Below the pieces are notes generated by a model. The model saw only the letters and a list, made by a program, of their open reading frames with translations, ran no database searches and was not told the origin of the DNA. A DNA stretch of 64,000 nucleotides, taken from Escherichia phage vB_EcoM_G4507. The DNA is taken from sequence record NC_054919.1. One strand, 5' to 3'. A program made the position numbers and the translations under genes. Positions 3,490 through 43,065 of this stretch are shown in pieces; positions within the stretch are counted from its first letter, which is position 1; every line of letters starts with the position of its first letter.

Positions 3490-5114
<1,625 letters not shown>

Positions 5115-10211: not shown

Positions 10212-10233
10212 AAAGGGACCTTTCGGTCCCTTT
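10212..10233. terminator. bidirectional hairpin AAAGGGACC-UUUC-GGUCCCUUU between convergent genes 24 and rnlB
   Basis: 9-bp stem, symmetric A/U flanks, placed exactly between the two convergent stop codons. Confidence 0.6.
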
Positions 10234-24634: not shown

Positions 24635-24636
24635 CA

Positions 24637-24658
24637 ATGGGGACCTTTCGGTCCCCAT
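24637..24658. terminator. bidirectional hairpin AUGGGGACC-UUUC-GGUCCCCAU between gene 54 and the convergent 96-aa ORF
   Basis: 9-bp perfect stem between two convergent stop codons. Confidence 0.6.
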
Positions 24659-24662
24659 ATTT

Positions 24663-24953
24663 TTATTTACGGAATGAAATGAAAGCAGCAACTGAAGCAA
24701 CTAAACTGTCTTCAATATAAACTTCAATTTTTACCGGAGCTTCTGACTCAAATTTACCTGTTACTACACCCTGAAAAATACTTTCAGTCTGTTCTGGCTT
24801 TGAAAAATTTTCAGAAGGAAAAATTCCGAACTTTTTATCTGTTCCAAAAATTTTGATAAATTCATCGTAAACTGCTTCATTAAAAGCATTATCAGCAGGA
24901 ATAACGCCTTCAACTACAAGTTCTTGACCTAAAAAGCGCAAAGAAGATTTCAT
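24663..24953 (-). CDS. hypothetical 96-aa protein driven by the duplicated early-promoter cassette
   Basis: ORF with GAGGA Shine-Dalgarno 9 nt upstream; GTTTAC-type promoter directly upstream; no recognisable domain. Confidence 0.6.
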   Translation of the reverse strand: MKSSLRFLGQELVVEGVIPADNAFNEAVYDEFIKIFGTDKKFGIFPSENFSKPEQTESIFQGVVTGKFESEAPVKIEVYIEDSLVASVAAFISFRK

Positions 24954-24960
24954 TTTGTGT

Positions 24961-25014
24961 TCCTCATGTTATGTCAGTAAGACTACTATAACACAACACG
25001 AGGGACTTGTAAAC
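24961..25014 (-). promoter_or_regulatory. 54-bp early-promoter plus leader cassette, copy 1
   Basis: Minus strand GTTTACAAGTCCCTCGTGTTGTGTTATAGTAGTCTTACTGACATAACATGAGGA: GTTTAC (-35), TATAGT/TTATAG (-10), GAGGA SD. Matches 40215-40268 at 53 of 54 positions. Confidence 0.6.
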
Positions 25015-27071
25015 TACATCTTGAACTTTTTAGACATTCCGTTGATGTTAACCAAAGAAGCTAAGATTTGAGAAACTTCGTTTTCCTCTTCTTTTGATTC
25101 TTCTACAAGGAATTGATTAAATCCAGCCATTGGACGAACTTCACCAGTTTCCATTAGATGGTCGCCATCATATACTGATTCTTCTAATTGTTCAGAAGGA
25201 GGAACGATTGTACCTTCGATTAGATACTTGTTATAAGCAGTTTCTTTCATAAAGTAAGTACTTACTTTATTAATCTTCAGTAAAATTCCACGTGGTAGAA
25301 TAACTTCAGCTTCTGACGGAAATCCTGATAAATGACCCGGAACGATAACTTTGATTCGCTCAGCTCCTTTAATTACCATACCCACGCTAGTTTCAGCATC
25401 TTCATTAGCATATGTAGAATGACTACCCATATGCATCAAATCTTCTGCATCAACGGAACCTTCTCCTTCACCAGAAAATACTGCGCCGGAATCATCTAGA
25501 GCCATATAGTTTTTACCATGCTCACCGAAGATATTTGGTTTAAGCGATGTGGATACGAAGTTCTTGAAATAGAACATTTTATTTTCAATGTTATGACGCA
25601 AAGTTTTAAAGGTAACTTCTTGTCCACGGTAAAGTGTAGTTCCTGGAGGAAGAACTGAACCTTTAGCGAATGCAGAATCAAGCGTCTCAATATGTTTAAT
25701 AGCTCGTTCCATATATTCTTCACGGGTAGAATCTGGTTTACCCAAAAGGAACGAGTTCATTTCAACATATGAATCTGCACAATAATCTTCAATTACATCA
25801 GATTCAGCTTGAGTTAATCCTTTTGGAGTTACTTCAGTGCTTGCGTATTCATATGCCTGAGCAGCAGATTCATTAATCAATTTATAAATGCCATTCATGA
25901 CAAATTGAATAATAGCTGTCTTTTCATCTGGCGTAGCTTTAGAACCTTTAACCAAATCATTGATAATTTTCTTAATAACATCAAAGCTATTAGAAATATT
26001 AATATCAGCAAGATCGCTTAAAATTTTATCAGTCTTATAATCAAAGAATTCTTTATTCTTTAAATATTCTTGAGAACCTTGATATGTTATATCGCTCTGT
26101 AACTTGATAGATGGATCACGTAAACGTGCATGGGCTAATGCAATATGATTTCGGAAGCTTTCGAGTTCATAATCACTAGATTTAAAACGAGAAGCGCTTC
26201 TCATACCGCCTATAGCTCCTTTGCTGAAGTTTGAACCAATTTGAATAACGCCAGAGTTCATTGGTCCTTCTGCTTTATACACCGGAACTTTAGATTCAAA
26301 CTCTTGATATTTCTTAGCAGCGAAGCTATCACCCTGAAGTGAAGCATCAACAGTAGAATATTGAGCTTGTGCTGCTAATCGACGACTAATTTTAGTTTTC
26401 TGAATAACAGCTTGGTCCGTGCGCTTATCATTTTCTAAAGCAATAGAAGCAGCAACAGCAACAGCTTTAGGAACAGCATTACCTGTTTTAACATCTACAT
26501 AAACATCACCAACCTTTGATTCAACTTTTGTGAATAACTCAGTTGAAATAGGAGGTACACCTGGAATGTCTTCTAAATTGGCATTTTTACGATAAACCAT
26601 AATATATGCGTACTTTTTATCATAATCCCAGATTTCCTTTAAAAGAACATATCGACCTGCTCCTTTAGTACGTACTAAACGGTCAGCAATAACTTGCATT
26701 TGACGAGCAGCGCCATTTGTTTTACTCTTTAGTACGCGGAATAAGCATGCATCAATTTTATACTGTTTCATTGTTTGAAGAGCAGTATCAAAAACAGCGT
26801 TAATGACGCCAATTGGATTTCCACCCAAGTTTCTAAGTTTAACCAGTGATAATTTCTCGTTGACACCTATCATTACGATATGCATCATTTTATCGCCCGG
26901 CTTAACGTTTTTATTTGTATCACCTCCAGAGGTGTATGTACAAAATCTAAATCCAGGAAGCACGCTTTCTTCGCCGGCTTGAATAGCAAAAATTTGAGGT
27001 ATTTTATGCTTAGGATTTAAGTTAACAACCGGCGCCGAAGCGCCGTCAAATAATTCTGTAATAAGTTCCAT
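25014..27071 (-). CDS. Alt-like ADP-ribosyltransferase paralog
   Basis: 685 aa; N-terminus MELITELFDGASAPVVNLNPKHKIPQIF and ART motifs TLYRGQ, FYFKNFVSTSL, SEAEVILPRG align with the adjacent alt gene; ATG 3 nt after the alt stop. Confidence 0.85.
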   Translation of the reverse strand: MELITELFDGASAPVVNLNPKHKIPQIFAIQAGEESVLPGFRFCTYTSGGDTNKNVKPGDKMMHIVMIGVNEKLSLVKLRNLGGNPIGVINAVFDTALQTMKQYKIDACLFRVLKSKTNGAARQMQVIADRLVRTKGAGRYVLLKEIWDYDKKYAYIMVYRKNANLEDIPGVPPISTELFTKVESKVGDVYVDVKTGNAVPKAVAVAASIALENDKRTDQAVIQKTKISRRLAAQAQYSTVDASLQGDSFAAKKYQEFESKVPVYKAEGPMNSGVIQIGSNFSKGAIGGMRSASRFKSSDYELESFRNHIALAHARLRDPSIKLQSDITYQGSQEYLKNKEFFDYKTDKILSDLADINISNSFDVIKKIINDLVKGSKATPDEKTAIIQFVMNGIYKLINESAAQAYEYASTEVTPKGLTQAESDVIEDYCADSYVEMNSFLLGKPDSTREEYMERAIKHIETLDSAFAKGSVLPPGTTLYRGQEVTFKTLRHNIENKMFYFKNFVSTSLKPNIFGEHGKNYMALDDSGAVFSGEGEGSVDAEDLMHMGSHSTYANEDAETSVGMVIKGAERIKVIVPGHLSGFPSEAEVILPRGILLKINKVSTYFMKETAYNKYLIEGTIVPPSEQLEESVYDGDHLMETGEVRPMAGFNQFLVEESKEEENEVSQILASLVNINGMSKKFKM

Positions 27072-27074
27072 GAT

Positions 27075-29126
27075 TTATCCTTGAACGAACTTGTAAGGCA
27101 TGTTTGTAATATCTATGCAAGACGCAATAATTCCAAGAGATGATTCTACTTTCTGTTTAACATTTGATGAAACAAATGATGCAAAGTCAACTCTATCTTC
27201 TATATCACCTGTCATTGTAACTACTTCGCCGGTTTCCATTAAACGGTCACCGTCATAAATTACTGATTCGGTGAGTTCTTCGGTGGTCATAACTTCAGCT
27301 TGAATAAGCTTGTTGTTAGTTTTGACTGTTCCATCATTGTAAGATGCATCAGTTATTTTATTAACTTTGACCATTAATCCACGTGGCAAAATGACTTCCA
27401 TTTCATTTGAAGGCGCTAAACTTCCACCGGGTAAAACAACATTGACTTTATCAGCCCCAGTAATAACCCATCCAATTCCGACTAAATTATCGCTAGAATT
27501 AACAAGCCCTTCATCATTTTTATCGATAGAAATGTTTAGACGCTTTTCATCTGGTAAAACACCAACAGCTGAATCAGTCATCCAAGTACCAAAAATGTTT
27601 GGATATAATGATGTTGATACAAAATTTCTAAAATAAAAAACTCGATTTTTTACCATTGCTTCGTATATTGAAGGTAACATTCGTTGTGAACGATACAAAG
27701 TAATACCTTTTGGTAATCGTTCACCATTTTTAAAGGCTGAATCTAAATTATCAATAGCTTTTTCTATGTCAGATGCTGTCAAAATACTTGTACGCTCATC
27801 TGGATTATATAATCCCAAAAGAGCATTATTTATGTCTACATATCCTGAACCTACGTATTCACGAATTCCGCGTTTTTGTGCTGGTGTGTATTTAGATGAA
27901 TCTTTATTTTCGACTATAGGATGTAATGACCATCCAGCTGTAAGAGCATATCCACGTAATTCTCTTCGAATAATCTTTGTTTTTATTGCATTCCAAGAAT
28001 TTTGTACTAACTCATTTGCAGCATCTTGGTTTAAATGCGAATGTTTGTTAATATTTCTTTCAAACCAAGCACCTTTATATTTTTCTAAAGTATTATCGAC
28101 GATAGAAGCAATAGTTTCTAAAGTTTTTATTGAAGTAATAGATTCTTTTCGTAATTTTTCTAAAGCTTTATTTTTTATTTCTGCATTAATAATGGATTCT
28201 TTATCTTCAGGAATTATAGAAGCTTCTCTGAATGCCATCCCAGCTGTAACACTGCTAAGAGCATTCTCTAGTGCAAATCCTGAAGTAGAAATTACCGTTA
28301 ATTCATTAGAATCAGAAATTAAAGGCGCATCAGCGGGTTTATTTAATTCTGCTGCTGAAGCCTCAAATTTTTGAAACATCGGTGTTTCAAATCTAGAAGA
28401 TTCCAATGACTGACTTTGTGCAATTGCTCTACGGGAAATTTTAACTTTAACGATTACAGCTTGGTCAGAACGTTTATCATTTTCTTGTGCAATAGATGCT
28501 GCAATTGCCTCATTTTTGGTTACTTGAGCTCCGGTATCTTTATTGATATAAACATCACCGACCTTCGATTCAACTTTAGTAAAGAGCTCGGTACTAATTT
28601 CCGGAACTCCTGGAATGTCTTCTAGTGATACATTTTTGCGATGTATAAGAATATATGCATACTTTTTATCATAATCCCAGAGTTCCTTAAGAAGGACGTA
28701 TCTGCCACCTGAACGACTACGGATAAGTCTATCAGCAATAACTTGAATTTGTCGAGCTTGACCAGCGGTTTTAGACTTAAGAATACGAAGCATACAGGCA
28801 TCAATTTTATACTGACGCATTGTTTGCATCGCAACAGTAAAAACTGAATTGATATAATTAATTGGGCTTGGACCAAGACCTTTTAATTTAGCAATTGAAC
28901 CTTTAGCAGTTAATGTAAAAGGAACAATATGCATCATTTTATCGCCCATCTTTAAATCGCGATTAGTATCACCTCCAGATGTATAGGTACATAAACGAAA
29001 GCCTGGTTGTTCAATTGCATCATCAACATGAACTGAAAAAATTTGCGGTATTTTCTTCTTTGGATTTAAGTTTGTAATCGGAAGAGTAGTATCTTCGTCA
29101 AATAATTCTGTAATAAGTTCCATCAT
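27075..29126 (-). CDS. alt: Alt ADP-ribosyltransferase (capsid-packaged, injected)
   Basis: 683 aa; MMELITELFDEDTTLPITNLNPKKKIPQIF...; R-S-ExE motifs ITLYRSQ, FYFRNFVSTSL, NEMEVILPRG; late promoter upstream. Confidence 0.9.
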   Translation of the reverse strand: MMELITELFDEDTTLPITNLNPKKKIPQIFSVHVDDAIEQPGFRLCTYTSGGDTNRDLKMGDKMMHIVPFTLTAKGSIAKLKGLGPSPINYINSVFTVAMQTMRQYKIDACMLRILKSKTAGQARQIQVIADRLIRSRSGGRYVLLKELWDYDKKYAYILIHRKNVSLEDIPGVPEISTELFTKVESKVGDVYINKDTGAQVTKNEAIAASIAQENDKRSDQAVIVKVKISRRAIAQSQSLESSRFETPMFQKFEASAAELNKPADAPLISDSNELTVISTSGFALENALSSVTAGMAFREASIIPEDKESIINAEIKNKALEKLRKESITSIKTLETIASIVDNTLEKYKGAWFERNINKHSHLNQDAANELVQNSWNAIKTKIIRRELRGYALTAGWSLHPIVENKDSSKYTPAQKRGIREYVGSGYVDINNALLGLYNPDERTSILTASDIEKAIDNLDSAFKNGERLPKGITLYRSQRMLPSIYEAMVKNRVFYFRNFVSTSLYPNIFGTWMTDSAVGVLPDEKRLNISIDKNDEGLVNSSDNLVGIGWVITGADKVNVVLPGGSLAPSNEMEVILPRGLMVKVNKITDASYNDGTVKTNNKLIQAEVMTTEELTESVIYDGDRLMETGEVVTMTGDIEDRVDFASFVSSNVKQKVESSLGIIASCIDITNMPYKFVQG

Positions 29127-29146
29127 AGCCTCTCTAGTGTTTATTC

Positions 29147-29154
29147 TATTTATA
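29147..29154 (-). promoter_or_regulatory. late promoter TATAAATA for alt
   Basis: Minus-strand TATAAATA about 21 nt upstream of the alt ATG. Confidence 0.5.
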
Positions 29155-29159
29155 AAATT

Positions 29160-29177
29160 AAAGGCCCGAAGGCCTTT
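29160..29177 (-). terminator. hairpin AAAGGCC-UUCG-GGCCUUU upstream of alt
   Basis: 7-bp stem with UUCG loop at the stop of the 62-aa ORF; separates the early block from late alt transcription. Confidence 0.55.
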
Positions 29178-29364
29178 AATAATCTAGTGGTAAGAGAGTA
29201 CGGTATATTTCAAACTTTGGACCTTTTTCATAGGCATCAAATGTTTCTGTGAATTTATTATAAGCATATGCATCTACAAATTCGAGAATGACTTGTGATA
29301 CAGAAGTAGAAACATCTCCACCTTCTTTTTGAGCAATGACAATTGTTTCTAAGTAAGCTTTCAT
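29176..29364 (-). CDS. hypothetical 62-aa protein
   Basis: ORF coupled to the ligase stop (overlap 29361-29364); no recognisable domain. Confidence 0.5.
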   Translation of the reverse strand: MKAYLETIVIAQKEGGDVSTSVSQVILEFVDAYAYNKFTETFDAYEKGPKFEIYRTLLPLDY

Positions 29365-30824
29365 AAACCAGTTACCTCATGAAAATCACCAAATACATCC
29401 TCGAATGTATTAGCTTTAGTTTTATCTTCACGCAAACGAATCGCAATCGGAAGAAATAATTTAACGTAATCAGTGCGGCCATCAGATTTTAACCAACCGT
29501 TGCATTCGCACTCTAGAATTTTTCCAATATAATAATTTTGGTTTTCCATAATGCGAGTACGGTCAAGTTCATGCGATTTTACACCGGCTTTATCTTTTAA
29601 GCCTGAACCAGCATTTACTTTAATTTTTCCACACTCTGACTCAAGAATAAATCCACCTGCTTTAGTAGGGTCTTTACGGTGAGGATAAATTCCTACAATT
29701 TTTAAATCAACATCAATTACTTCTTTAAATTTATAGAGATTTTTTGAACGAGCATTTTCCCATAATCCATCGATATTTTTGAGAATAATACCTTCAAGAC
29801 CTTGGTCAATATACTTTTTATAAATTATCTTGGCTTCGTCTAGGTTATTTACTACCTGGTTTTCAATTAAAATTACTTTATCATAGCCTGATGTCATTTG
29901 TTCTAGTTTAGAAAAACGTACATCATATTTCAAACGAAATGCAGGAAGACCGTATATTTCTACCAACGGTACATAATCCCAGACCTGAAACTTCATGCAT
30001 TGTGCTTCTTTTTCAGAAATGGTTCCCTTTAAAGATTTATTGGCGATGCCATTAGATGCAGTACGTGATTCAGCTACTTCGGCGAATTCTTTAGCTTTAC
30101 TGTTTTCAGGATAAGCATCAAAAAGAAAATCTAGGCCTTCTGGCTCCTTTTTAACTTGCTCATGATATACCAATTCGCCATCAATTAACACGCCTTCTGG
30201 ATGAATCTGGCGGGCTTCAGCGGTCATTTTGATTAATTCTTCCTTAAGAAGATCTAATCCTAGATATTCATTACCAGCTCGTGATAAAAGACGAACGTCA
30301 TCTAATTCATCACCTCTGACTTCGGCAAAGCACCGAGCTCCATCAGCTTTTAACTGGGCAAAGGCTGGAAATTTGATATTCTTATTAATGCCTTTTTCAT
30401 CATAAGAACTTGCAAGCATTTGAGGTTGTTCAGGAATTAAACCTGGCCAAACTTTGTTCGCAATAGATACTGAAGCGCCACATTCAAGGTCTCGCATCAT
30501 CACTCGACGCAAAACTTCAACATCATCTTTTTTACCGTCAGTAATATAACCTACTAATTCCTCAATTGCCGCATTTCCGGTCAATTTTCGAGTAGCTAAT
30601 GTAAATTCAATGAAGTCAAGCATATCAGTAATAGTCAGCATTCCAAAACTCTGGGTAGCAATACCAGGTTTAGGCCATTTCTTGATATAATACTGTAACC
30701 CACGAGAATAAGTCAGACGATATACTCGTTTAAGCAATTCATTATCTTTATTCTTTTCAAGAATTGCTTGCTTCTGCTTAGTTGAACCAATAGATGCTAT
30801 TTCGTTCAGAATTTTAAGAATCAT
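29361..30824 (-). CDS. 30: ATP-dependent DNA ligase gp30
   Basis: 487-aa ORF with adenylation motif I FAQLKADGARC; N-terminus MILKILNEIASIGSTKQKQAILEKNKDNELLKRVYRLTY as in T4 ligase. Confidence 0.95.
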   Translation of the reverse strand: MILKILNEIASIGSTKQKQAILEKNKDNELLKRVYRLTYSRGLQYYIKKWPKPGIATQSFGMLTITDMLDFIEFTLATRKLTGNAAIEELVGYITDGKKDDVEVLRRVMMRDLECGASVSIANKVWPGLIPEQPQMLASSYDEKGINKNIKFPAFAQLKADGARCFAEVRGDELDDVRLLSRAGNEYLGLDLLKEELIKMTAEARQIHPEGVLIDGELVYHEQVKKEPEGLDFLFDAYPENSKAKEFAEVAESRTASNGIANKSLKGTISEKEAQCMKFQVWDYVPLVEIYGLPAFRLKYDVRFSKLEQMTSGYDKVILIENQVVNNLDEAKIIYKKYIDQGLEGIILKNIDGLWENARSKNLYKFKEVIDVDLKIVGIYPHRKDPTKAGGFILESECGKIKVNAGSGLKDKAGVKSHELDRTRIMENQNYYIGKILECECNGWLKSDGRTDYVKLFLPIAIRLREDKTKANTFEDVFGDFHEVTGL

Positions 30825-31090
30825 TGTTCATCCTTTAGAGTTTGGTTTACAGCTCTATTATAAATCAATTCATCATTAAGCTCAGTCAAAGACCTGTGGT
30901 ACGTTGTTCTAACTTTATTTCCTTGCATCCAGTGCTTGACGTAAATGAAACCTTGCTCTACACATTTTTTAAAAATTCGTTCGTCTTTTTGAGCTCGGAA
31001 TTCTGGATTGCATCTAAAAAATTGATTTACGTGACCGTAATCACGTGTAGTATTACCTTCATTTTCATAAATAGTGTGAACAACAAACAT
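30821..31090 (-). CDS. hypothetical protein (30.1-like)
   Basis: 89-aa ORF coupled to the ligase start; position only. Confidence 0.55.
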   Translation of the reverse strand: MFVVHTIYENEGNTTRDYGHVNQFFRCNPEFRAQKDERIFKKCVEQGFIYVKHWMQGNKVRTTYHRSLTELNDELIYNRAVNQTLKDEQ

Positions 31091-31929
31091 TAGAATGCTC
31101 CTTGGAAAATATTATTAGCACCAGTAGGTCTATTATACAAATACTCTATGCCACCGGGTTTAATATAGTTCCATGTCTGAAACGGATGCGTCTGATATGG
31201 ATGATATAGATGATTATAAGGATTAAATCCAGGAGTTCTCCAGGTAGTGTTCCAAGGAAAAGAATCGTTTTTAATCATCTTTTCAATTACATCTTTTATA
31301 GCTTTTTCACTATCAAAACTTTCTTTATTTTCCTTCGGTGAAAAAAGCTTATTTTCTACATCATTCCATGTATAAACTCGCTGAGCAGTTTTTGGAATAT
31401 TGTCACGCTCTCCTCGAGCCATCCAATAAACAGGAACATTTAATATTTCACTCGCATGATCGCAATGGTGAGCGAGATCGTCAATATAACAAATCACGTT
31501 ATATTTCTCTTTTGCCTTTTTAAACAACTCTTCTTTTGAAGAATCATGACCACACATCAGTACTTCTGAGAAGGCACCAGGAAAAAGAGCGTTCAAATTA
31601 AATTGACGATTCAGCAGAGCGTCAATAGAATCACCCAATGCTGTAACAGCTACAAAATTATAATCTTCTTTTAATTTGTTAATTACACACAGAGCATCTT
31701 TATATGGAGACAAGTAACGAATAAAATCTGAACGATTGTATTTTTCAATTAGCTTGACGCCAAGTTCTTCATCACAATTAAAAAGTTTACCTGGAGAAAT
31801 AAATTTCTCATCTTGGATCATTTTTAAAATATGTTCTAATGGAAGATTATATTTCTGAGCAAAATAAGGAAGACCTGATTGCCAGCTTAAACATACTCCA
31901 TCAATATCAGTTAAAATAGTAGGCTTCAT
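31090..31929 (-). CDS. HAD-superfamily phosphatase-like protein (30.2-like)
   Basis: 279 aa; N-terminal HAD motif I ILTDIDGVCL. Confidence 0.65.
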   Translation of the reverse strand: MKPTILTDIDGVCLSWQSGLPYFAQKYNLPLEHILKMIQDEKFISPGKLFNCDEELGVKLIEKYNRSDFIRYLSPYKDALCVINKLKEDYNFVAVTALGDSIDALLNRQFNLNALFPGAFSEVLMCGHDSSKEELFKKAKEKYNVICYIDDLAHHCDHASEILNVPVYWMARGERDNIPKTAQRVYTWNDVENKLFSPKENKESFDSEKAIKDVIEKMIKNDSFPWNTTWRTPGFNPYNHLYHPYQTHPFQTWNYIKPGGIEYLYNRPTGANNIFQGAF

Positions 31930-32390
31930 AGAGAGTCTCTTAATAGGTTTAACACATCAATAAATTCAGCTTCGGTTAGTATTGTATCATCTTTTGTTAG
32001 ACCACTAGCCATGCTGTGCTTCAAAACTTTTCCTTTCGAGGCTTGTAATGCATCACGAAAGCCCTTGTTTTGAATCGCTGCTTCAAAATATGCATTTGTG
32101 TATAATTCTTTCCACGCCGGGGAGTATCTTGAAAACGGAACTCCAATCCAGAAGAGGGTCCCACGGTCCTGAGCTCTAGCATAAGACCTTCCAGCTTGTT
32201 GGGCGGCAAGCCCGGATAACCCAAATATACGACGTTGTTGTTCAACATTTTTCACCTTACACCCTTGGAGGAATCCTTCAAGACCTCCAAATTGAATACC
32301 ATCCATAACGAAAGGCCATTGGGCGAAATTACTTAATGCGCATGATGGCCATCTAAAATTACTTCTAATCTCTAACTCAGACATTTTCAA
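31926..32390 (-). CDS. NADAR (YbiA/DUF1768)-like protein (30.3-like)
   Basis: 154 aa; segment SNFAQWPFVMDGIQFGGLEGFLQGCK matches the YbiA/NADAR signature SNFAxWP..DG as recalled. Confidence 0.7.
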   Translation of the reverse strand: MKMSELEIRSNFRWPSCALSNFAQWPFVMDGIQFGGLEGFLQGCKVKNVEQQRRIFGLSGLAAQQAGRSYARAQDRGTLFWIGVPFSRYSPAWKELYTNAYFEAAIQNKGFRDALQASKGKVLKHSMASGLTKDDTILTEAEFIDVLNLLRDSL

Positions 32391-32583
32391 TGCTTATAAT
32401 TTCAACATCAGCCCAATGACCATAGCAAGGAAGACGAAATTCAACTGGCCAGTTAGGGTCCTTTTCTAATATAATAGACTTAACTTGTGGTTCTTCGTGT
32501 TCATCAGTATACGGATTTTTATCTGTTACTTTATATGTGACCTTAATGTACTGAATTCCAAAAATCTTATTAATTATATTCAT
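32377..32583 (-). CDS. hypothetical 68-aa protein
   Basis: Short ORF in the operon-like 30.x array, overlapping its neighbours by a few nt. Confidence 0.5.
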   Translation of the reverse strand: MNIINKIFGIQYIKVTYKVTDKNPYTDEHEEPQVKSIILEKDPNWPVEFRLPCYGHWADVEIISIENV

Positions 32584-32777
32584 ACTAATTCCTTTAATCC
32601 GTAGATAGGAGATAATTCATCACCCATACGAAGGTCTTCATTTCCATCTACCCAGGAAACAATATAAGCCTCTTTTATTTGAATACCACTCCATTTAAAT
32701 GGAGGTAGAACCTTAGAAATTAATCCAGGTATACCAACTCCCTTTAATTCAACGGTTTGACCTAAAAAGAATTTCAT
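32580..32777 (-). CDS. hypothetical 65-aa protein
   Basis: Short ORF in the 30.x array; coupled start/stop. Confidence 0.5.
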   Translation of the reverse strand: MKFFLGQTVELKGVGIPGLISKVLPPFKWSGIQIKEAYIVSWVDGNEDLRMGDELSPIYGLKELV

Positions 32778-33064
32778 TAAAACCTCATCTGAAAACCATG
32801 CGATTTAACGTTACCACCGCCAATATCAGAAATATTAATTTCACGCGCAATTGAAGGGTCAATGTCAATTTCACGATTGAGTTTAGTGATAGCTAAAGTA
32901 TCGCGCCCATTTACAGTACGGAACTCTAAAGGACAAACCACATCAACGTAGTTTTTAATCGATTCGCTAGTAGGTTGCAAATGTGCAGGAAGGTCTTTAG
33001 GCGACTTTGAGAAAACTACTTCGCAGAAGTTTTTACGGGTATCAAAATAAGTAGTCATAAACAT
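32777..33064 (-). CDS. hypothetical 95-aa protein
   Basis: ORF preceded by GAGGA and a terminator-like hairpin. Confidence 0.55.
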   Translation of the reverse strand: MFMTTYFDTRKNFCEVVFSKSPKDLPAHLQPTSESIKNYVDVVCPLEFRTVNGRDTLAITKLNREIDIDPSIAREINISDIGGGNVKSHGFQMRF

Positions 33065-33080
33065 AACATTTTCCTCAGTA

Positions 33081-33096
33081 AGGGGCCAAAGCCCCT
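33081..33096 (-). terminator. hairpin AGGGGC-UUUG-GCCCCU
   Basis: 6-bp stem between ORF 33106-33483 and ORF 32777-33064, then U-run. Confidence 0.5.
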
Positions 33097-33105
33097 CATT
33101 TTATT

Positions 33106-33483
33106 TTAAATATCAAATTCGTTAAGAACTACATCAAAGATTGCTTCAAGATGCTCAGGTTTAGCTCTGTTACTCAGAATATGACGAATCCAAGTTTTAA
33201 CCAAAAGCTTGCGATTAGCACCATTCCAGCAAGGATGAGTCCCTAAATCACGTTGACGAAAATCATCATCCAGAGCGATTTTGAAGTTTGAACCTTCCAT
33301 TGTGATTGAAACCGTGATGCCATTTTCAAATCGCATATAAACGTAATTAGGAGTCATATACTGTTCAATTTCGCATACTGATCCATTTTGATGTTTCCAA
33401 AGGCAAATAGTATCAATAGAACCTGCAATACAATTAGAAACATATTTACGTTCAAAATTGGTGTAGTTCATTTTATTCTCCAA
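33106..33483 (-). CDS. hypothetical 125-aa protein
   Basis: ORF with GGAGAATAAAATG start context and GTTTAC-type promoter upstream. Confidence 0.6.
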   Translation of the reverse strand: MENKMNYTNFERKYVSNCIAGSIDTICLWKHQNGSVCEIEQYMTPNYVYMRFENGITVSITMEGSNFKIALDDDFRQRDLGTHPCWNGANRKLLVKTWIRHILSNRAKPEHLEAIFDVVLNEFDI

Positions 33484-33538
33484 GATGTTTAATTGCGGTA
33501 CAGGTATATAATATCATATCCTGTACCAAAGTAAACAA

Positions 33539-33871
33539 TTATTTTACTACTTTCCAATGCTGCATGTCAAGTTTACCAACTTTTTTCATCTTCTCAATTA
33601 AGCGTTCTGCACGTTGGCGAGCTGTAACATAATGCCATTCGCCTAATTCATTTTGTTCAATTTTTCCAACGATTACTGTATTCAATTCATAAATCCAACC
33701 AGTAAAGAAATTATGAACTTGAATTGTAAAGGTGAAATCTGTTCCCATACCTTCTGTTGTTTCTACTTCAATAATATCACCTTCAACTGCCATTAAGAAC
33801 CACATAGTTTCATCATATTTACCATTGAAGCATTTAGTTTTAACTGTAGCGTTCAGATTAATCGTTTTCAT
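33539..33871 (-). CDS. hypothetical 110-aa protein
   Basis: ORF with AAGGAGAATAAAATG start context and GTTTAC-N18-TAGTAT promoter upstream. Confidence 0.6.
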   Translation of the reverse strand: MKTINLNATVKTKCFNGKYDETMWFLMAVEGDIIEVETTEGMGTDFTFTIQVHNFFTGWIYELNTVIVGKIEQNELGEWHYVTARQRAERLIEKMKKVGKLDMQHWKVVK

Positions 33872-33958
33872 TTTATTCTCCTTTGTTTATGTAAGATAAT
33901 ACTATCACAAAGGAACTATACTGTAAACAACTTTATGCAATCTTTGGAAAATAAAAAA

Positions 33959-33976
33959 GGACTCCCGAAGGAGTCC
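33959..33976 (-). terminator. hairpin GGACUCC-UUCG-GGAGUCC
   Basis: 7-bp stem with UUCG loop 5 nt after the stop of the 58-aa ORF, then U-run. Confidence 0.55.
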
Positions 33977-33981
33977 TCAAC

Positions 33982-34158
33982 TTATGCTTTCTGCTTACCA
34001 AAACGAGAAGCATCATCTCGAAGAACCGCACGTGCTCGGCGCATGATCTTCTCAACAGTTTGATTGATACGAGAGTTCGACCCACGCTTGTAGCCAGCGC
34101 GTTTAGAATCACCAACTTTCTTTTCAACTGCTTTCTTTGCTTTAACTTGTTTTGCCAT
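33982..34158 (-). CDS. small basic protein (58 aa; possible 72-aa form from ATG 34200)
   Basis: Lys/Arg-rich MAKQVKAKKAVEKKVGDSKRAGYKRGSNSRINQTVEKIMRRARAVLRDDASRFGKQKA; start uncertain. Confidence 0.45.
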   Translation of the reverse strand: MAKQVKAKKAVEKKVGDSKRAGYKRGSNSRINQTVEKIMRRARAVLRDDASRFGKQKA

Positions 34159-34402
34159 TATAAATTCTCTTTTAAATGAAAATGCAGGACTTATTGGCAT
34201 TGCCTGCGAAAGCCCTCAAAGGGGTACTTAGGTTTTGAATATTTACCGACAGGATAACCATAAACCCGTCATCATTCACATTCAAGAGGTACACCATAAA
34301 ACTGCCGGGGTCTTAAAACTATAATGATTCGCAAATCATTAATCAGACAGTTCGATGGCTCCTCGATTTTAGCTCACACTAAGGCAGTGAATCTCCAATA
34401 AA

Positions 34403-34651
34403 TTACTTCAGTGTTACCACAAAGTGACGAACTGCTTTTCGTGCAGCAGAAGCCAGAGGCTTAGCATACTTAAGTTCATCTTTTTCCTGAAGCTCAGCGG
34501 CTAATGCAGTTTGAGCAGGATTTAGATGTTTGAAATAACGCAGGATTTCAAGAGCTTCGGCTTCAACATCAATAGATGCGCCATAGTTTTCGTGACCATT
34601 ATTCCATGCGTTTCGTTGCAGTTCAAGAGCGTGTTGTAATTGTTTAATCAT
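34403..34651 (-). CDS. rIII: lysis-inhibition accessory protein RIII
   Basis: 82-aa ORF between gene 31 and the 30.x array; length and position match T4 rIII as recalled; TATAAATA upstream at 34781-34788. Confidence 0.8.
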   Translation of the reverse strand: MIKQLQHALELQRNAWNNGHENYGASIDVEAEALEILRYFKHLNPAQTALAAELQEKDELKYAKPLASAARKAVRHFVVTLK

Positions 34652-34798
34652 TTAAAAATTCTCGTTAGAGATTAAAACTCGGTAGTCACGTTCTTCTGAA
34701 TTTCATCTTCTTTCGACAGATCTCTCAGTTGTAGACTACCACATAGAATTGTTCGGTTAACTTATTATTCCGACACCCAATTCATATTATTATTTATA

Positions 34799-35134
34799 TC
34801 ACTTATAAAGACATGGAATAGCTTTATAGTGACAAGTAACGAATTTTTGTTTAATTTCTTTTGGCTGCTTAAGACCCAGAGCTACAAAAGGATGCGGAAC
34901 GTTTCGAATTTGACCAACTGGAAGAGAAGTCAAATCACCAACTTCGCAGAAACCTTCAGGAACATCAGGACCAACAGAGTGAACTACACACAATTCAGGA
35001 ACTTCACCTTGAACACGTTTACCGATAATAAGCCCTGATTCTGTGACTTCTTCATCGCCAGCTTGTGCAGGTTCAGAAACTAAAATAACATATTCACCGA
35101 CAGCACGAATTGGTAGCTGTTGTACTTCAGACAT
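34799..35134 (-). CDS. 31: co-chaperonin gp31 (GroES analogue for gp23 folding)
   Basis: 111-aa [43 protein letters not shown]...; length matches T4 gp31 as recalled. Confidence 0.92.
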
Positions 35135-35164
35135 CGTTTTTCCTTTTTGTTAATAGATGAATTA

Positions 35165-35189
35165 ATAATAACAAATAATTCTTAAAGCA
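35165..35189 (-). promoter_or_regulatory. MotA-dependent middle promoter for gene 31
   Basis: Minus strand AATGCTTTA (MotA box), 12-13 nt, then TATTAT, upstream of the gene 31 ATG. Confidence 0.5.
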
Positions 35190-35190
35190 T

Positions 35191-35499
35191 TTATTTACCA
35201 ATAAATTGGAGCAAATGCTCAACTTTCATACCATTAACGGAAATCAATTTGTCAATAGAAAAACCTCGCCATGCGCCAAGTTCAACATCAAATACTGGAA
35301 TCATGTCAGTAGATTCTTTCCGAGTAGATTCAGTCAATTTACCAGTTTGCATGGTTGGCATAAAGTCTGCATCACGAGTACCTTTCATAGTACGAATAGT
35401 ACCATCAGACTTTTCAAAAACTACGTTTGAAACACCCATGGACAATTTAGTTTTCAAAATTTCGCGAATTGCTACTTTCTGCTCAGTTGTCAGTTTCAT
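35191..35499 (-). CDS. hypothetical protein (31.1-like)
   Basis: 102-aa ORF between cd and gene 31. Confidence 0.6.
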   Translation of the reverse strand: MKLTTEQKVAIREILKTKLSMGVSNVVFEKSDGTIRTMKGTRDADFMPTMQTGKLTESTRKESTDMIPVFDVELGAWRGFSIDKLISVNGMKVEHLLQFIGK

Positions 35500-35736
35500 T
35501 TATTTACCTATTACAGTTTTAATATGAGTTGTTCCACGTTCTTTAAGGGTGGAAAGTAATTTTTGGCATTTTTCTAAATCAGATTTCCAACTATATGGTC
35601 TATCAATACAAACCCAATTTGTCTTATAATACTGTTTCCATTTAGAGAAAAAATATTTCTTATACTCTACAGCAAACGAGATGTTCTCATTAGAATAAGA
35701 ACTAATTGCTGTGAGCTTTACCAAACGAAATTTCAT
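35500..35736 (-). CDS. hypothetical protein (31.2-like)
   Basis: 78-aa ORF coupled to the cd stop. Confidence 0.55.
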   Translation of the reverse strand: MKFRLVKLTAISSYSNENISFAVEYKKYFFSKWKQYYKTNWVCIDRPYSWKSDLEKCQKLLSTLKERGTTHIKTVIGK

Positions 35737-36317
35737 TATTCACCACAGAATTCGTTGATATTTTCCCAGTTTAACTTATTCAAGTTTTTCTTAGGAACAT
35801 TAAACACTTCAATACCTGCATTTCGCAGAATATCATCCCAGCCAGGTTTATTTTTATCGTATGTTTCGCAATAAACCAGCTTTTTAATACCAGATTGAGC
35901 TATTGCTTTTGCACAATCTGGACAGGGAGAAAGTGTTACATACATAGTAGCACCTTCAATAGAAGAACCATTTCGTGCAGCAAACAAAATTGCATTTAGT
36001 TCAGCATGAATTTCATTTTTAGATGACCATTCCGAGTGAGCACTACGATGTTCTTTTGCCAAGACAAAACGATCAGTTGAACCAAATGATACGCATTCGG
36101 GCTTATGGCCTTGAATGATAGTATGTTTAGGCTTATTCAACAACCATCCTTGCTCAGCAGCATAATCACAACAGTTCACACCCCCTGCGGGTGAACCATT
36201 ATACCCAGTAGAAATAATACGTCCATTCTTTTCAATTACTGCTCCTACCTTCCAGGAGCAACATTTTGATTCTTGTGATACTAAATATGCAATTTGAAGT
36301 ACTGTACTCGCTTTCAT
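35736..36317 (-). CDS. cd: dCMP deaminase
   Basis: 193-aa ORF with zinc-binding deaminase motifs HAELNAI and PCPDCAKAI. Confidence 0.93.
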   Translation of the reverse strand: MKASTVLQIAYLVSQESKCCSWKVGAVIEKNGRIISTGYNGSPAGGVNCCDYAAEQGWLLNKPKHTIIQGHKPECVSFGSTDRFVLAKEHRSAHSEWSSKNEIHAELNAILFAARNGSSIEGATMYVTLSPCPDCAKAIAQSGIKKLVYCETYDKNKPGWDDILRNAGIEVFNVPKKNLNKLNWENINEFCGE

Positions 36318-36652
36318 TTCATAATCACCAGATAAGCAGATTTAGCAGTTTCAACACGATAAATTTCGTGACGAAGTTTAGTTATACTTTTAATAACAGA
36401 ACTAATTATATTCTGCCCATCTTTAAAGCGGTTTTTCTTGTCAATAAAAATTGCACCAACCATCTTTTTGTGAAGCTCAACTGGATACTTCGTCACAATA
36501 ATAGCATCATATACAGAAGGATGAATACTATTTACTAGAGTGTCATTCATTAAAGTTATTCTAATGAACTGTGCTGTTTCAGAGTCAAGCGCTCTATGAT
36601 CGCCAGTATCATTTTCAAGACAATTATCAATTATATCAGTTAAATTCATCAT
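36314..36652 (-). CDS. hypothetical protein (cd.x array)
   Basis: 112-aa ORF coupled to the cd start. Confidence 0.55.
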   Translation of the reverse strand: MMNLTDIIDNCLENDTGDHRALDSETAQFIRITLMNDTLVNSIHPSVYDAIIVTKYPVELHKKMVGAIFIDKKNRFKDGQNIISSVIKSITKLRHEIYRVETAKSAYLVIMK

Positions 36653-36888
36653 AGTACGCCATACACCCTTTGTGCTTCAACTAATCCATCAAAATCCAGT
36701 TTAAGATGCGATATTTGATCGCCATCGCCTGGATTCACAATTACTAATACTGAACGAGGAGTTTCGGTAATAACACGAACCGATGTTTCAGGAAATCGTT
36801 CAGAAACCTTATTTACCAATTCCTGAGCAAATAGTTTAACTTTTTCTTGGAATTCTTTAACAGTAATTGGTTTTTCACTTAGCAGCAT
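36649..36888 (-). CDS. hypothetical protein (cd.x array)
   Basis: ORF-track start 36984 trimmed to ATG 36888 (GAGGAAAACAAAATG); GTTTAC-N18-TATTAT promoter at about 36915-36948. Confidence 0.5.
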   Translation of the reverse strand: MLLSEKPITVKEFQEKVKLFAQELVNKVSERFPETSVRVITETPRSVLVIVNPGDGDQISHLKLDFDGLVEAQRVYGVL

Positions 36889-36949
36889 TTTGTTTTCCTC
36901 ATTTGTTTGGTAGAGCCATAATATCACAACTCTACCGTAAAGTAAACTA

Positions 36950-37225
36950 TTAAATCGCTTTGAATTCCGCAGTTTGAGATTCAAAGCGAATGTCGCCTTT
37001 GATAACTAGCTCAGCATCAAGACCAAATACGACAATGATATGCGCGGAACCTGGATACAGCGTAATGGCAACAGAATCCACCTGGTCTGGAAGCAAAGTG
37101 TTTAATACATGAGTCACTTGAGCATGGATTCGAAGTTCGGCTGCGTTATCAAGCTTTTCAAACATATTATTAGCGATAATTTGGCTAAACACTACTTCTA
37201 CGATTTTAGAGTAAGTCGGAAACAT
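36950..37225 (-). CDS. hypothetical protein (cd.x array)
   Basis: 91-aa ORF with GAGG Shine-Dalgarno. Confidence 0.5.
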   Translation of the reverse strand: MFPTYSKIVEVVFSQIIANNMFEKLDNAAELRIHAQVTHVLNTLLPDQVDSVAITLYPGSAHIIVVFGLDAELVIKGDIRFESQTAEFKAI

Positions 37226-37227
37226 AT

Positions 37228-37428
37228 TTACCTCACATAATTTTCTTCAAGCCAATCAATAACATCCAACGCATTATCAAAAGTTGAACCATCTACTCTG
37301 TCTTCTGTTTCATAATCAAGAACATCTAAGCCTACTCTTCCATCAACAATAGGCCATAAACAAAATAGATATTTCTTTTCTTTTTCAATTTTATCACAAA
37401 GACGATAAATCTTTTCTATGTTATTCAT
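37228..37428 (-). CDS. hypothetical protein (cd.x array)
   Basis: 66-aa acidic ORF. Confidence 0.45.
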   Translation of the reverse strand: MNNIEKIYRLCDKIEKEKKYLFCLWPIVDGRVGLDVLDYETEDRVDGSTFDNALDVIDWLEENYVR

Positions 37429-37617
37429 AAGTTTTCCATGGTAAAGGCAGTTTAGTTTTCTTTACTGTTAGTTCAACATCAGGATTCTTTTCTCTTAATT
37501 TAAGGCATTCCTCCCAAGCTCTGATTTCACTAGTGAATACACAAAATTGCCCATTACTAGTACCGACTAAACCACTATTTACAATAATAATAGCCCAAGT
37601 TTCATGGTGCAAAGCCA

Positions 37618-37618
<1 letters not shown>
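37421..37618 (-). CDS. hypothetical protein (cd.x array)
   Basis: 65-aa ORF coupled to the pseT stop. Confidence 0.45.
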
Positions 37619-38836
<1,218 letters not shown>

Positions 38837-38840
<4 letters not shown>

Positions 38841-39067
38841 TTATTTTTCTCAACCAATGATTGAATATAATCATGCAGGTCTTTAGATGCTTTACCCCAC
38901 TTATTTTGATATTCATTTTTGAGATTAGCACGTGATTGAGCTAATAAAACATCATTAGTTGGAGGTAAAGATTCTAATCGCTGAATCTGGCGTCCATAAA
39001 TCATTGCAGCCATCTCGGATTCATAAATCAATCCTTTGAGATGTTCAAATTGATGCCATGAAATCAT
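38837..39067 (-). CDS. hypothetical 76-aa protein
   Basis: ORF coupled to its neighbours. Confidence 0.5.
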
Positions 39068-39363
39068 TTACATTTATCCTCTTTTAACTCTTGACGATAA
39101 TAACATATCATAGTTTTCTGGTCATGTACATATCGTTTTACATCATTAAGCCAAATACGAAATTCCTGGGAATCTTCAAATGGCATACCGACCCAAGCTT
39201 TACCATCAATAACTTTAACTTGCCAAGATAATTTAGCTTCGTCATATGACTTTATTTGTACAGGCCAATTAGGATGAATTGTTTCTTTCTTTACTTCTAG
39301 AGGCTTTGTCGAACAACCAACTAGAAGACCAATAGATAATATTACTGCTGATAGTTTAATCAT
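39064..39363 (-). CDS. pseT.2: outer-membrane spanin (lipoprotein, Rz1 equivalent)
   Basis: 99 aa; signal peptide with lipobox MIKLSAVILSIGLLVGC-S; adjacent to the i-spanin-like gene. Confidence 0.7.
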   Translation of the reverse strand: MIKLSAVILSIGLLVGCSTKPLEVKKETIHPNWPVQIKSYDEAKLSWQVKVIDGKAWVGMPFEDSQEFRIWLNDVKRYVHDQKTMICYYRQELKEDKCK

Positions 39364-39713
39364 TTAGAAAGGTCCTGGATGTCTTCTGCTAACTTGTTGA
39401 AGGAGTTGTTAATTTGTTTTTCAACCAATCCTGGCTTATGAGCCACCACATCCGCCTTCTTTGCGTCTTTGCGCAGTTTTTCATTTTCACGCTCAATAGC
39501 AGCAATTGCCTCACGATTTTTATTATTCATCGCATCAATATAATTATACTGAATTCGCAAATTATTTAATGCTAAAGCGTTTTCATTGGCTGTTTTTGTA
39601 ATTTCGGTAACTGATGTTTCTAATCTTTCTACCTTATTTTTTAAAATAATAGATGTTCCGCCAAATGCTATTACAAGTAATAGCAATCCAGCTGTAAAAT
39701 TACTTACATGCAT
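39360..39713 (-). CDS. pseT.3: inner-membrane spanin (Rz equivalent)
   Basis: 117 aa; N-terminal transmembrane helix GLLLLVIAFGGTSIIL followed by coiled-coil-prone periplasmic region; coupled to the o-spanin gene. Confidence 0.7.
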   Translation of the reverse strand: MHVSNFTAGLLLLVIAFGGTSIILKNKVERLETSVTEITKTANENALALNNLRIQYNYIDAMNNKNREAIAAIERENEKLRKDAKKADVVAHKPGLVEKQINNSFNKLAEDIQDLSK

Positions 39714-40210
39714 AAAGTTTTAATAACCTCTATAATATCGTCTTGAGAAAGACCGTTAATTAAAATATGATGTTCAGCTGGAGATTTAGAAATTTTAAAG
39801 CATGCCTCAACATCTTCTGCCATATCCGATGCACTACGATTTGGATTACTAATCCCAAGGCGATGTTTTCCCGTCAAAGGATTAACGATGATATAGCATT
39901 TGCAGCTATTGATATGAACATTGGGTTGAGTCTGATTAATGAACACTTCACAATCATACTTAGCGAGTTGATTTTCTAAAAAGACTTTCATCTCTTCAAC
40001 CGCATCAGGAAGCATATCACGGGCTTGCTCAAGACGACGATTTCGATATTCTTTAATGGTCGTTTTCCGCTTGACTTGTTTAGCTAAATCTTTCTTAAGA
40101 TCAGTGATATATCCAACTCGACGATTTCCTTTAAATACAGAAATCCCATCTGTAGTATCACCGTATGCTTCAACGACCATTTCAGTAGTAATACGCTGCA
40201 AATCCATCAT
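39704..40210 (-). CDS. alc: Alc, host transcription unfoldase / terminator on cytosine DNA
   Basis: 168-aa ORF between the spanin genes and rnlA; length and position match T4 alc as recalled; driven by early-promoter cassette copy 2. Confidence 0.8.
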   Translation of the reverse strand: MMDLQRITTEMVVEAYGDTTDGISVFKGNRRVGYITDLKKDLAKQVKRKTTIKEYRNRRLEQARDMLPDAVEEMKVFLENQLAKYDCEVFINQTQPNVHINSCKCYIIVNPLTGKHRLGISNPNRSASDMAEDVEACFKISKSPAEHHILINGLSQDDIIEVIKTLCM

Positions 40211-40214
40211 AAAG

Positions 40215-40268
40215 TCCTCATGTTATGCCAGTAAGACTACTATAACACAACACGAGGGACTTGTAAAC
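40215..40268 (-). promoter_or_regulatory. 54-bp early-promoter plus leader cassette, copy 2 (upstream of alc)
   Basis: Identical to 24961-25014 except one transition; GTTTAC -35 begins 3 nt after the rnlA stop; GAGGA SD 4 nt before the alc ATG. Confidence 0.6.
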
Positions 40269-40271
40269 AGC

Positions 40272-41859
<1,588 letters not shown>

Positions 41860-41867
41860 AATAAAAT

Positions 41868-41881
41868 GGGCCTTGCGGCCC
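41868..41881 (-). terminator. hairpin GGGCC-GCAA-GGCCC between nrdB and denA
   Basis: 5-bp GC stem with GNRA-type loop (minus-strand sense). Confidence 0.45.
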
Positions 41882-41886
41882 ACTCC

Positions 41887-43065
41887 TTAAAAGTATTTTT
41901 TAAAACTCATCATAACTTTATCATCAACATCATTATCAATCTGTGCAACAAGGTAAGATGACAGTTCTACTTCTTGTGGCGCGGATTGAACATTATCAGA
42001 ATTAAGATATTCACGAATCCAAGGATACGGATGTTTAACCGGAGCATCGGTAATTGGGCATGGAAGACCACACTGTTTCATACGAGATACAGTTAAGTAA
42101 TCAATAAAGCTCCACATGCTATTTGTATTTAATCCAGGAACATCGCCGTCTTTAAATAAATGAACTGCCCAATCTTTTTCTTGGCGGTTAACTTCCATGA
42201 AAATATCAACTGCTTCTTGTTCACACTCTTGAGCAATTTTAACCCATTCATCGCCATCAGTGCCAAGTTGAAGTTGACGAATAATATATTGGGTGCCTTT
42301 AAGGTGAAGCTGCTCATCACGTGCAATGAACTTCATAATCTTGGCATTACCTTCCATGATTTCCATGTTTTTATGGAAGTTAAAGGTACATGCGAAAGAT
42401 ACATAAAAACGAATAGCTTCCAATGCGTTGATTACATGCAAACAGAGGTAAAGAGATTTCATTAGCTCACGCTTCCAATATGTCTCATGCTCAATAGCAT
42501 CTTCAATAACGTCTTCGTCTGCATTAATTTCTTTTTGGTATTCGATATCAGCTTTAGCGTTTTCCCAATAACGAGTTTTAATCAGAACATCATCATAATA
42601 ACGTCCAATGGATTCAGCACGTTTCATAATAGCTTCATCTAATACAATTTCATCAAATACCTTCGATGGATCAGTATAAAGATTTCGCATGATATGTGTA
42701 TATGAACGGCTGTGAATAGTTTCACTAAAAGTCCACGTAGCAACCCATGTATCAAGGCTTGGGTCTGAAATTAATGACATAAGTACAGCAGACGGCGCAC
42801 GACCCTGAATGCTATCCAAAAGTGATTGATACTTCAGATTATTAGTAAAAATATTTTGCTGATACTGAGGAAGCTTATTAAACTGTGCAGCATCCATCAT
42901 CAAGTTTACTTCTTCAGGACGCCAGAAAAATGATAATTGCTTTTCGGTTAAATCTTCAAAAACTTTATGACGTTGAATATCATAACGCGCAATACCAAGA
43001 CCTGAACCAAAAAACATAGGTTCTTTTAAAACATCAACTGGATTTGTATTAAAAACTGTGCTCAT
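41887..43065 (-). CDS. nrdB: ribonucleotide reductase small subunit NrdB (continuous, no intron)
   Basis: 392-aa uninterrupted ORF MSTVFNTNPVDVLKEPMFFGSGLGIARYDIQRHKVFEDL... Confidence 0.93.
   Translation of the reverse strand: MSTVFNTNPVDVLKEPMFFGSGLGIARYDIQRHKVFEDLTEKQLSFFWRPEEVNLMMDAAQFNKLPQYQQNIFTNNLKYQSLLDSIQGRAPSAVLMSLISDPSLDTWVATWTFSETIHSRSYTHIMRNLYTDPSKVFDEIVLDEAIMKRAESIGRYYDDVLIKTRYWENAKADIEYQKEINADEDVIEDAIEHETYWKRELMKSLYLCLHVINALEAIRFYVSFACTFNFHKNMEIMEGNAKIMKFIARDEQLHLKGTQYIIRQLQLGTDGDEWVKIAQECEQEAVDIFMEVNRQEKDWAVHLFKDGDVPGLNTNSMWSFIDYLTVSRMKQCGLPCPITDAPVKHPYPWIREYLNSDNVQSAPQEVELSSYLVAQIDNDVDDKVMMSFKKYF

Follow-up and report, generated by a model that had tools for sequence, protein, structure and literature searches.

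A repeated early-promoter cassette with a predicted ribosome-binding-site hairpin at the rnlA/alc and alt/alt.-3 boundaries of a T4-type phage

The repeat and its neighboring genes

The window considered here is a 64,000-nt stretch of the genome of Escherichia phage vB_EcoM_G4507 (NC_054919.1), a Tequatrovirus. It contains exactly two copies of a 54-nt direct repeat, at 24961-25014 and 40215-40268, which are identical at 53 of 54 positions and lie 15,254 nt apart; in 100 shuffles used as a control, no match was found. All of the genes around both copies are on the minus strand, and the features of the two junctions are as follows.

24637-24658, bidirectional: GC-rich terminator hairpin between the convergent gene 54 (plus strand) and alt.-3 (minus strand), which ends the copy 1 transcription unit
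24663-24953, minus strand: alt.-3 homologue of 96 aa, downstream of copy 1 (Pfam DUF5498, the T4 alt.-3 family)
24961-25014, minus strand: cassette copy 1, at the junction from the Alt paralog to alt.-3; differs from copy 2 by one base, G41A (cassette numbering)
25014-27071, minus strand: distal Alt-like ADP-ribosyltransferase paralog, the TAG stop of which overlaps copy 1 (Pfam ADP-ribosyltransferase)
27075-29126, minus strand: proximal Alt-like ADP-ribosyltransferase paralog (Pfam ADP-ribosyltransferase)
39704-40207, minus strand: alc, encoding an inhibitor of host transcription, 167 aa long when counted from the second ATG (Pfam ALC, 7.5e-92)
40215-40219, minus strand: Shine-Dalgarno (SD) sequence GAGGA of alc, 7 nt before the second ATG at 40207
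40215-40268, minus strand: cassette copy 2, at the junction from rnlA to alc; sequence GTTTACAAGTCCCTCGTGTTGTGTTATAGTAGTCTTACTGGCATAACATGAGGA
40272-41396, minus strand: rnlA (RNA ligase 1, gene 63), upstream of copy 2 (Pfam T4 RNA ligase 1)

Read on the minus strand, the second junction is GGA TAC TAA gct GTTTACAAGTCCCTCGTGTTGTGTTATAGTAGTCTTACTGGCATAACATGAGGA CTTT ATG ATG GAT. The rnlA stop codon (TAA, 40274-40272) is followed by 3 nt (gct), then by copy 2 (GTTTACA...GAGGA), and a further 4 nt (CTTT) lead to the first of two tandem ATGs. At the first junction, which reads AAG ATG TAG TTTACA...GAGGA ACACAAA ATG AAA, the cassette (GTTTACA) takes its initial G from the TAG that ends the distal Alt paralog, and GAGGA lies 7 nt ahead of the ATG of the alt.-3 homologue. 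An earlier, sequence-only reading of the window had described this layout, with both copies wedged between a stop codon and the following gene start, and in these respects it was correct: the repeat is real, copy 2 does begin 3 nt past the rnlA stop, and copy 1 does begin on the last base of the Alt-paralog stop. Its placing of GAGGA 4 nt from the alc ATG holds for the first tandem ATG and has to be revised for the functional one. In phages REP2 and UFV11, the first tandem ATG at the rnlA/alc junction (REP2 locus 2484-2545) is ATA, and the T4 annotation begins alc at the second ATG. Alc therefore starts at 40207, and the functional distance between SD and ATG is accordingly 7 nt at both copies.

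The number of copies of Alt, an injected effector, differs among relatives: there are two full-length paralogs in tandem here, one together with remnants (alt.-1/alt.-2) in T4, one in PST, and three in the Dhakavirus WG01. A sequence related to the terminator hairpin at 24637-24658 occurs at 10215-10230 (repeat family D12).

An early promoter in each copy

The 5' part of each cassette has the form of a promoter.

24985-25013, minus strand: copy 1 promoter core, with -35 TTTACA, a 17-nt spacer, TGt, and -10 TATAGT
40239-40267, minus strand: copy 2 promoter core, with -35 TTTACA (40267-40262), a 17-nt spacer ending in TGt, and -10 TATAGT (40244-40239)

The match to the sigma-70 consensus is 10 of 12 at both copies (TTTACA-17-TATAGT), with an extended -10 TG before the second hexamer, and each promoter is followed on its 3' side by a leader of about 20 nt and then by the SD GAGGA. 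Transcription is predicted to start near the A at 40232 (cassette base 37), 7 nt after the -10, in copy 2, and near 24978 in copy 1. A-runs are visible upstream of the -35, within coding sequence (ttttttgaaaaattataaaaaattt before copy 2, ctaaaaag before copy 1). In REP2 and UFV11, the -10 at the rnlA/alc junction is a perfect TATAAT (G29A).

These features fit the architecture described for T4 early promoters (PMC2988021), with which the cassettes share the GTTTACA -35, the 17-nt spacer, TGn with a TATAAT-like -10, and early genes downstream. They are unlike other T4 early promoters in that their identity extends over the whole span from -35 to SD at a distance of 15 kb, whereas other early promoters in the window share consensus elements only. 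The expression classes reported for T4, which are data for that phage and not for the present isolate, are early RNA and early protein for alc and alt.-3 (PMC9697503 supplements), late for alt, and early RNA with late protein for rnlA (PMC9697503). Judged by its sequence, then, each copy is a T4-type immediate-early sigma-70 promoter with a short leader and a ribosome-binding site, in other words an ordinary regulatory element. The proposal that the unit drives alc is supported by the 10/12 match with TG, by the GAGGA, and by the early class of alc in T4.

Other identities for the element were considered. There was no Rfam family match in 24000-42000. An intrinsic (Rho-independent) terminator was rejected because the stem lacks a U-run (the sequence on its 3' side is CUUUAUGAUG or ACACAAAAUG) and a terminator scan called no terminator-like site at either cassette. 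A target for RegB was rejected by eye, the SD being GAGGA without GGAG.

Distribution among relatives

Across the 18.4 kb that include both copies, the sequence is 99.1% identical to that of Escherichia phage vB_EcoM_G10400 and 95-99% identical to those of about 500 Tequatrovirus genomes, and the interval is collinear in 461 records. A megablast search with the 54-mer found 635 places in 411 records. Both copies are found at these junctions, rnlA/alc and alt.-2/alt.-3, in the T4 reference genome as well. Since T4 and its relatives carry both copies, the cassette pair is an old, genus-wide feature of T4-type phages rather than a peculiarity of this isolate. Variation in copy number, as suggested by apparent single-copy genomes, was rejected, for PST and teqhad hold both copies, the second with 2-4 substitutions.

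Crossover between the copies

The sequence-only reading had gone on to propose that the repeats are a recombination hotspot, at which deletion or duplication of the intervening 15 kb shapes gene content between ligase and alc and so explains the variable content of relatives. There are grounds for taking this seriously. With 54 bp of identity, the copies reach or exceed the homology that T4 recombination requires (Singer et al. 1982, as cited in PMC2839356), and on this point the proposal was sound; PeSL cassettes of RB49 and phi1, discussed below, do form circles and deletions (Arbiol 2010, PMC2839356; Comeau 2014, PMC4122927); and the two copies bear signs of sequence exchange.

The two junctions that crossover would be predicted to leave were built and searched against 50,697 phage records, a junction counting as present where one place covered 80% of the query. 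The deletion junction (rnlA end/cassette/alt.-3) was found in 0 of 498 matching records, in which it always aligned as two separate halves, and the duplication or circle junction (alt end/cassette/alc) likewise gave separate halves only (0/498). The native rnlA/cassette/alc junction, by comparison, is present at full length in 502 of 505 records. The native alt/cassette/alt.-3 junction is at full length in 405 and intact in about 500 overall; about 95 T4-type records align there from 19 nt upstream of the cassette, which is where the truncated second alt paralog of T4 stops, and so place a breakpoint near the cassette and not in it. No recombinant junction turned up in pattern scans of contigs from IMG/VR and metagenomes, which covered a very small number of native ones (about five): an exact-core scan of IMG/VR gave 5 loci, and in all five metagenome matches anchored at the end of rnlA the sequence runs on into alc.

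Gene order is the same in T4, G10400, PST, teqhad, BF15, REP2, W143, UFV11, and phage 132. Comparison of gene content between the cassette positions, the check that had been proposed, revealed conserved content, the small differences within the interval being a second alt paralog, an ORF after pseT, and an ORF between cd.2 and cd.3, all with breakpoints away from the cassettes. The interval includes genes 30 (DNA ligase) and 31 (co-chaperonin), both essential in T4. The T4 head packages about 3.3 kb beyond one genome (PMC9391042). Loss of genes 30 and 31, on the one hand, and a duplication of 15.25 kb that exceeds this headful slack, on the other, mean that neither product would be viable alone. 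Crossovers between the copies may thus occur in infected cells, giving inviable products that leave no trace in genomes. With both junctions and the interval conserved across the genus, the idea that the repeat mediates 15-kb rearrangements and thereby explains variable gene content fails, and we regard a hotspot of this kind as highly improbable. The repeat is better seen as a regulatory element, conserved and present in T4 itself, that does not drive gene-content variation; 54 bp of identity would be tolerated in a highly recombinogenic phage because the products of crossover are lethal, while conversion apparently still homogenizes the copies.

Origin of the sequence identity

At alt/alt.-3, the upstream stop codon is directly adjoined by a TTTACA-N17 promoter in WG01, the Mosigvirus JS09, and VR7, as it is at rnlA/alc in WG01 and JS09. 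The occurrence of promoters at the same junctions in other genera means that their positions are ancestral. In those genera, however, the two promoters share only their consensus ends (GTTTACA and CATGAGGA), and the likeness within a pair is no greater than that to promoters of other genera: the two promoters are 96-100% identical in Tequatrovirus, compared with at most 78% in Dhakavirus and Mosigvirus. In the three other genera, the alt.-3 promoters have a common ACAC...GTGT spacer and no anti-SD. On these comparisons, the 54-nt identity is specific to Tequatrovirus.

This identity is best explained by ectopic, non-reciprocal gene conversion rather than by crossover. The two promoters would have had the GTTTACA and CATGAGGA ends in common before conversion, in which alc-type sequence probably overwrote the alt.-3 promoter, with occasional exchange thereafter. 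Dhakavirus alc has the anti-SD motif too, which makes an alc-type donor probable; the direction of conversion rests mainly on one shared motif. The matrix of paralog and orthologue identities (0.75 versus 0.73) is too coarse to show either the direction of conversion or homogenization in Mosigvirus.

Whether exchange continues is a separate matter. Signs of exchange are present: six site/allele variants are common to both loci, of 8 at alc and 10 at alt.-3, whereas 0.5-1.0 would be expected (p ≤ 2e-5, on the assumption that all sites are free to mutate). An alternative is that the identity dates from a single ancient duplication or conversion, was kept by purifying selection, and has acquired its shared variants in parallel. 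About 11 of the 54 positions vary, and the majority of the shared variants are transitions in the loop or at wobble positions, where the same change could plausibly arise twice; were no more than about a dozen sites able to change, parallel mutation could account for much of the overlap. Less easily accommodated are the T to A transversion found in both copies of BF15, the linked G29A+G32A haplotype that occurs at both loci and in both copies of UFV11, and an overlap of six where unconstrained nulls predict at most one. We consider a single event without further exchange to be rather unlikely, although the least so of the alternatives weighed here, and the shared variants suggest that the loci continue to exchange sequence by conversion.

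The pattern resembles concerted evolution by ectopic conversion as known elsewhere, in that copies are closer within a lineage than orthologues are across lineages and polymorphisms are shared. It differs in that the tract is very short, around 40 nt between the GTTTACA and CATGAGGA anchors, and in that its statistical support depends on the number of sites assumed to be mutable.

A predicted hairpin over the ribosome-binding site

Each cassette is also an inverted repeat, a property that is new with respect to the sequence-only reading.

24960-25006, minus strand: copy 1 inverted repeat/hairpin, with the same pairs as copy 2 but different outer pairs
40212-40262, minus strand: copy 2 inverted repeat/hairpin, its 5' arm being the -35/-10 spacer (AAGUCC-CUCGUGUUGUGU) and its 3' arm the leader and SD (GCAUAACAUGAGGACUU)

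The outer pairs differ between the copies because the flanks differ. In the predicted structure, the spacer (CCCUCGUGUUGUGU) forms the stem together with the leader and SD (GCAUAACAUGAGG), and the -10 and the predicted start site (A, cassette base 37) occupy the top and loop region. Folded from the -35 to just past the SD, copy 2 has a predicted free energy of -24.4 kcal/mol (z -3.6) and copy 1 one of -23.0 kcal/mol (z -3.8), whereas an RNA starting just after the -10, that is, the leader alone, folds no better than shuffles (z ~0). The hairpin persists in the MFE and centroid structures of both copies in 241-nt contexts, and GAGGA is paired in predicted MFE and centroid folds in contexts of 74-241 nt.

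The predicted pairing holds in 99.2% of pair cells across 14 distinct cassette variants, taken from 14 genomes together with 5 metagenome contigs. Five pairs vary by wobble-compatible changes only, and the recurrent G29A, which makes the -10 a perfect TATAAT, breaks one pair. The four-base loop (loop bases 32-34) is the most variable part of the hairpin. No double compensatory changes were found within the Tequatrovirus variants, in which changes are one-sided and shuffles do not distinguish structure. Beyond the genus, the Dhakavirus WG01 has at its rnlA/alc junction a spacer/SD hairpin of different sequence (TCTCCTCAT/ATGAGGAGA), whereas the alc promoter of the Mosigvirus JS09 has no anti-SD, so that gating of the kind proposed below would not be universal. 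Taken together, these comparisons give the predicted hairpin moderate support.

What such a structure might do is suggested by the position of the cassettes, at boundaries where a later-expressed upstream gene (rnlA or alt) abuts an early one (alc or alt.-3). A candidate promoter for read-through transcription lies upstream of each.

29147-29154, minus strand: late-promoter motif TATAAATA, just upstream of the alt genes
41423-41450, minus strand: MotA-box-like middle promoter (aTGCTTcca, with TACTAT ~12 nt later), upstream of rnlA and overlapping the denA stop

The first of these is a likely source of late read-through into copy 1, and the second, from its resemblance to a MotA box, a likely source of read-through into copy 2. 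The late-promoter motif is itself part of a compact terminator/late-promoter boundary between alt.1 and alt (29147-29185, minus strand), in which a terminator hairpin (AAAGGCCTTCGGGCCTTT plus a T-run) is followed by TATAAATA before the first alt gene.

In RNA that reads through from upstream, the spacer would fold onto the leader, burying the SD, and translation of the downstream gene would be poor. RNA from the cassette's own promoter would begin in the loop or the 3' arm, without the anti-SD arm, and would be translatable. The translation of alc and alt.-3 could in this way be tied to the activity of their early promoters, read-through and promoter-initiated RNA being distinguished by a translational gate that we infer from the predicted folds.

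A different role for the hairpin would be to act mainly on the upstream rnlA or alt message, as a 3' stabilizer, a processing site, or a weak terminator, and not to gate translation at all. A stable stem of some 22 bp directly after two stop codons could serve such an end, and a broader role for such hairpins is suggested by other early promoters in the window, whose hairpins of spacer and first transcribed bases leave the SD uncovered. Against termination is the result given above, copy 1 lacking a U-run beyond the stem and copy 2 having none called; against any role confined to the upstream message is the exact coincidence of the 3' arm with the SD, both in Tequatrovirus and in alc of Dhakavirus. 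Although the two functions are not mutually exclusive, we think it unlikely that the upstream message is the main target.

The reading that we favor as a whole, and hold to be fairly probable, combines an early promoter, an SD-burying hairpin that gates translation, and ectopic gene conversion between copies whose crossover products are inviable. A stronger formulation, in which a promoter-embedded anti-SD switch operates at boundaries between later and early genes and its copies are kept identical by recurrent ectopic conversion over 15 kb, is put forward only tentatively, since we would sooner doubt it than rely on it.

Comparison with known systems

The cassettes invite comparison with PeSLs, repeated modules of early promoter, stem-loop, and SD that recombine in hyperplastic regions to make indels and mini-circles (PMC2839356, PMC4122927). 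The overall composition is the same, an early promoter, a stem-loop, an SD, and an ATG, repeated in the genome, and the fit to the PST/T4 PeSL promoter consensus TTTACW-N17-TAYWAT (PMC2839356, PMC4122927) is close, TATAGT departing from TAYWAT at one -10 base. The cassette could on these grounds be a true PeSL, that is, a mobile promoter-terminator module moved by excision and integration of mini-circles, with or without a gene. In a PeSL, however, the stem-loop is a terminator upstream of the promoter, whereas that of the cassette overlaps the promoter, enclosing the -10 and start and covering the SD, and it has no U-tract and is not called as a terminator. PeSLs stand beside variable ORFans, whereas the neighbors of the cassettes are conserved in about 500 genomes; they leave indels and circles, of which neither junction was seen here (0/498); and promoters with ancestral positions, shared across four genera, are not insertions. 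A mobile origin is in our view improbable, if not quite to the degree of the crossover hotspot.

A closer functional parallel is provided by hairpins that sequester the ribosome-binding sites of T4 genes e, soc, 49, and I-TevI on read-through transcripts. Another case is mobE (Gibb and Edgell 2009, as cited in PMC3014915). As in those systems, the SD of the cassette is predicted to be hidden on RNA from an upstream promoter, and an internal promoter to give a shorter, translatable RNA. The timing is unlike: the classical cases have a late internal promoter and early silent RNA, whereas the cassette has an early promoter, and the RNA kept silent would be middle or late read-through. The cassette combines a T4 early promoter with a predicted RBS-sequestering hairpin and belongs to those known kinds. 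A review of T4 post-transcriptional regulation does not mention alc.

What is suggested is a simple, predicted translational gate for alc, the factor that shuts off host transcription, and for the uncharacterized alt.-3. If the proposal is true, then the switch lets only promoter-initiated early RNA be translated, in mirror image of the arrangement at e, soc, and 49, and ectopic conversion homogenizes regulatory modules of T4 without structural trace.

Further observations

Four other early-promoter-like sites in the window, of the form GTTTAC[AT]-N16/17-TA..AT with minus-strand -35 elements at 33535, 36946, 49705, and 50682, have a stable inverted repeat of spacer and first-transcribed bases. 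Their hairpins have z values of -2.3 to -4.9 against mononucleotide shuffles and do not cover the SD. Of seven such sites, one, at 53982, has no hairpin. There is in this a hint of a wider pattern: hairpins embedded in the promoter could be common to T4 early promoters in general, a feature that has gone undescribed.

A 106-aa ORF lies between pseT and pseT.1 (38520-38840, minus strand); it is absent in T4 and present in PST (as ORF218), G10400, REP2, and others. It is an ordinary small indel within the interval, unconnected with the cassettes.

In the Gaprivervirus VR7 (locus 3805-4120), rnlA is followed by a terminator hairpin and then by a different promoter with an SD-pairing hairpin of its own (GGTTCCATCA/TGATGAGGACC). 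Ahead of the complete alc gene, the same locus also holds a partial duplicate of alc, 234 nt long (ORF243c).
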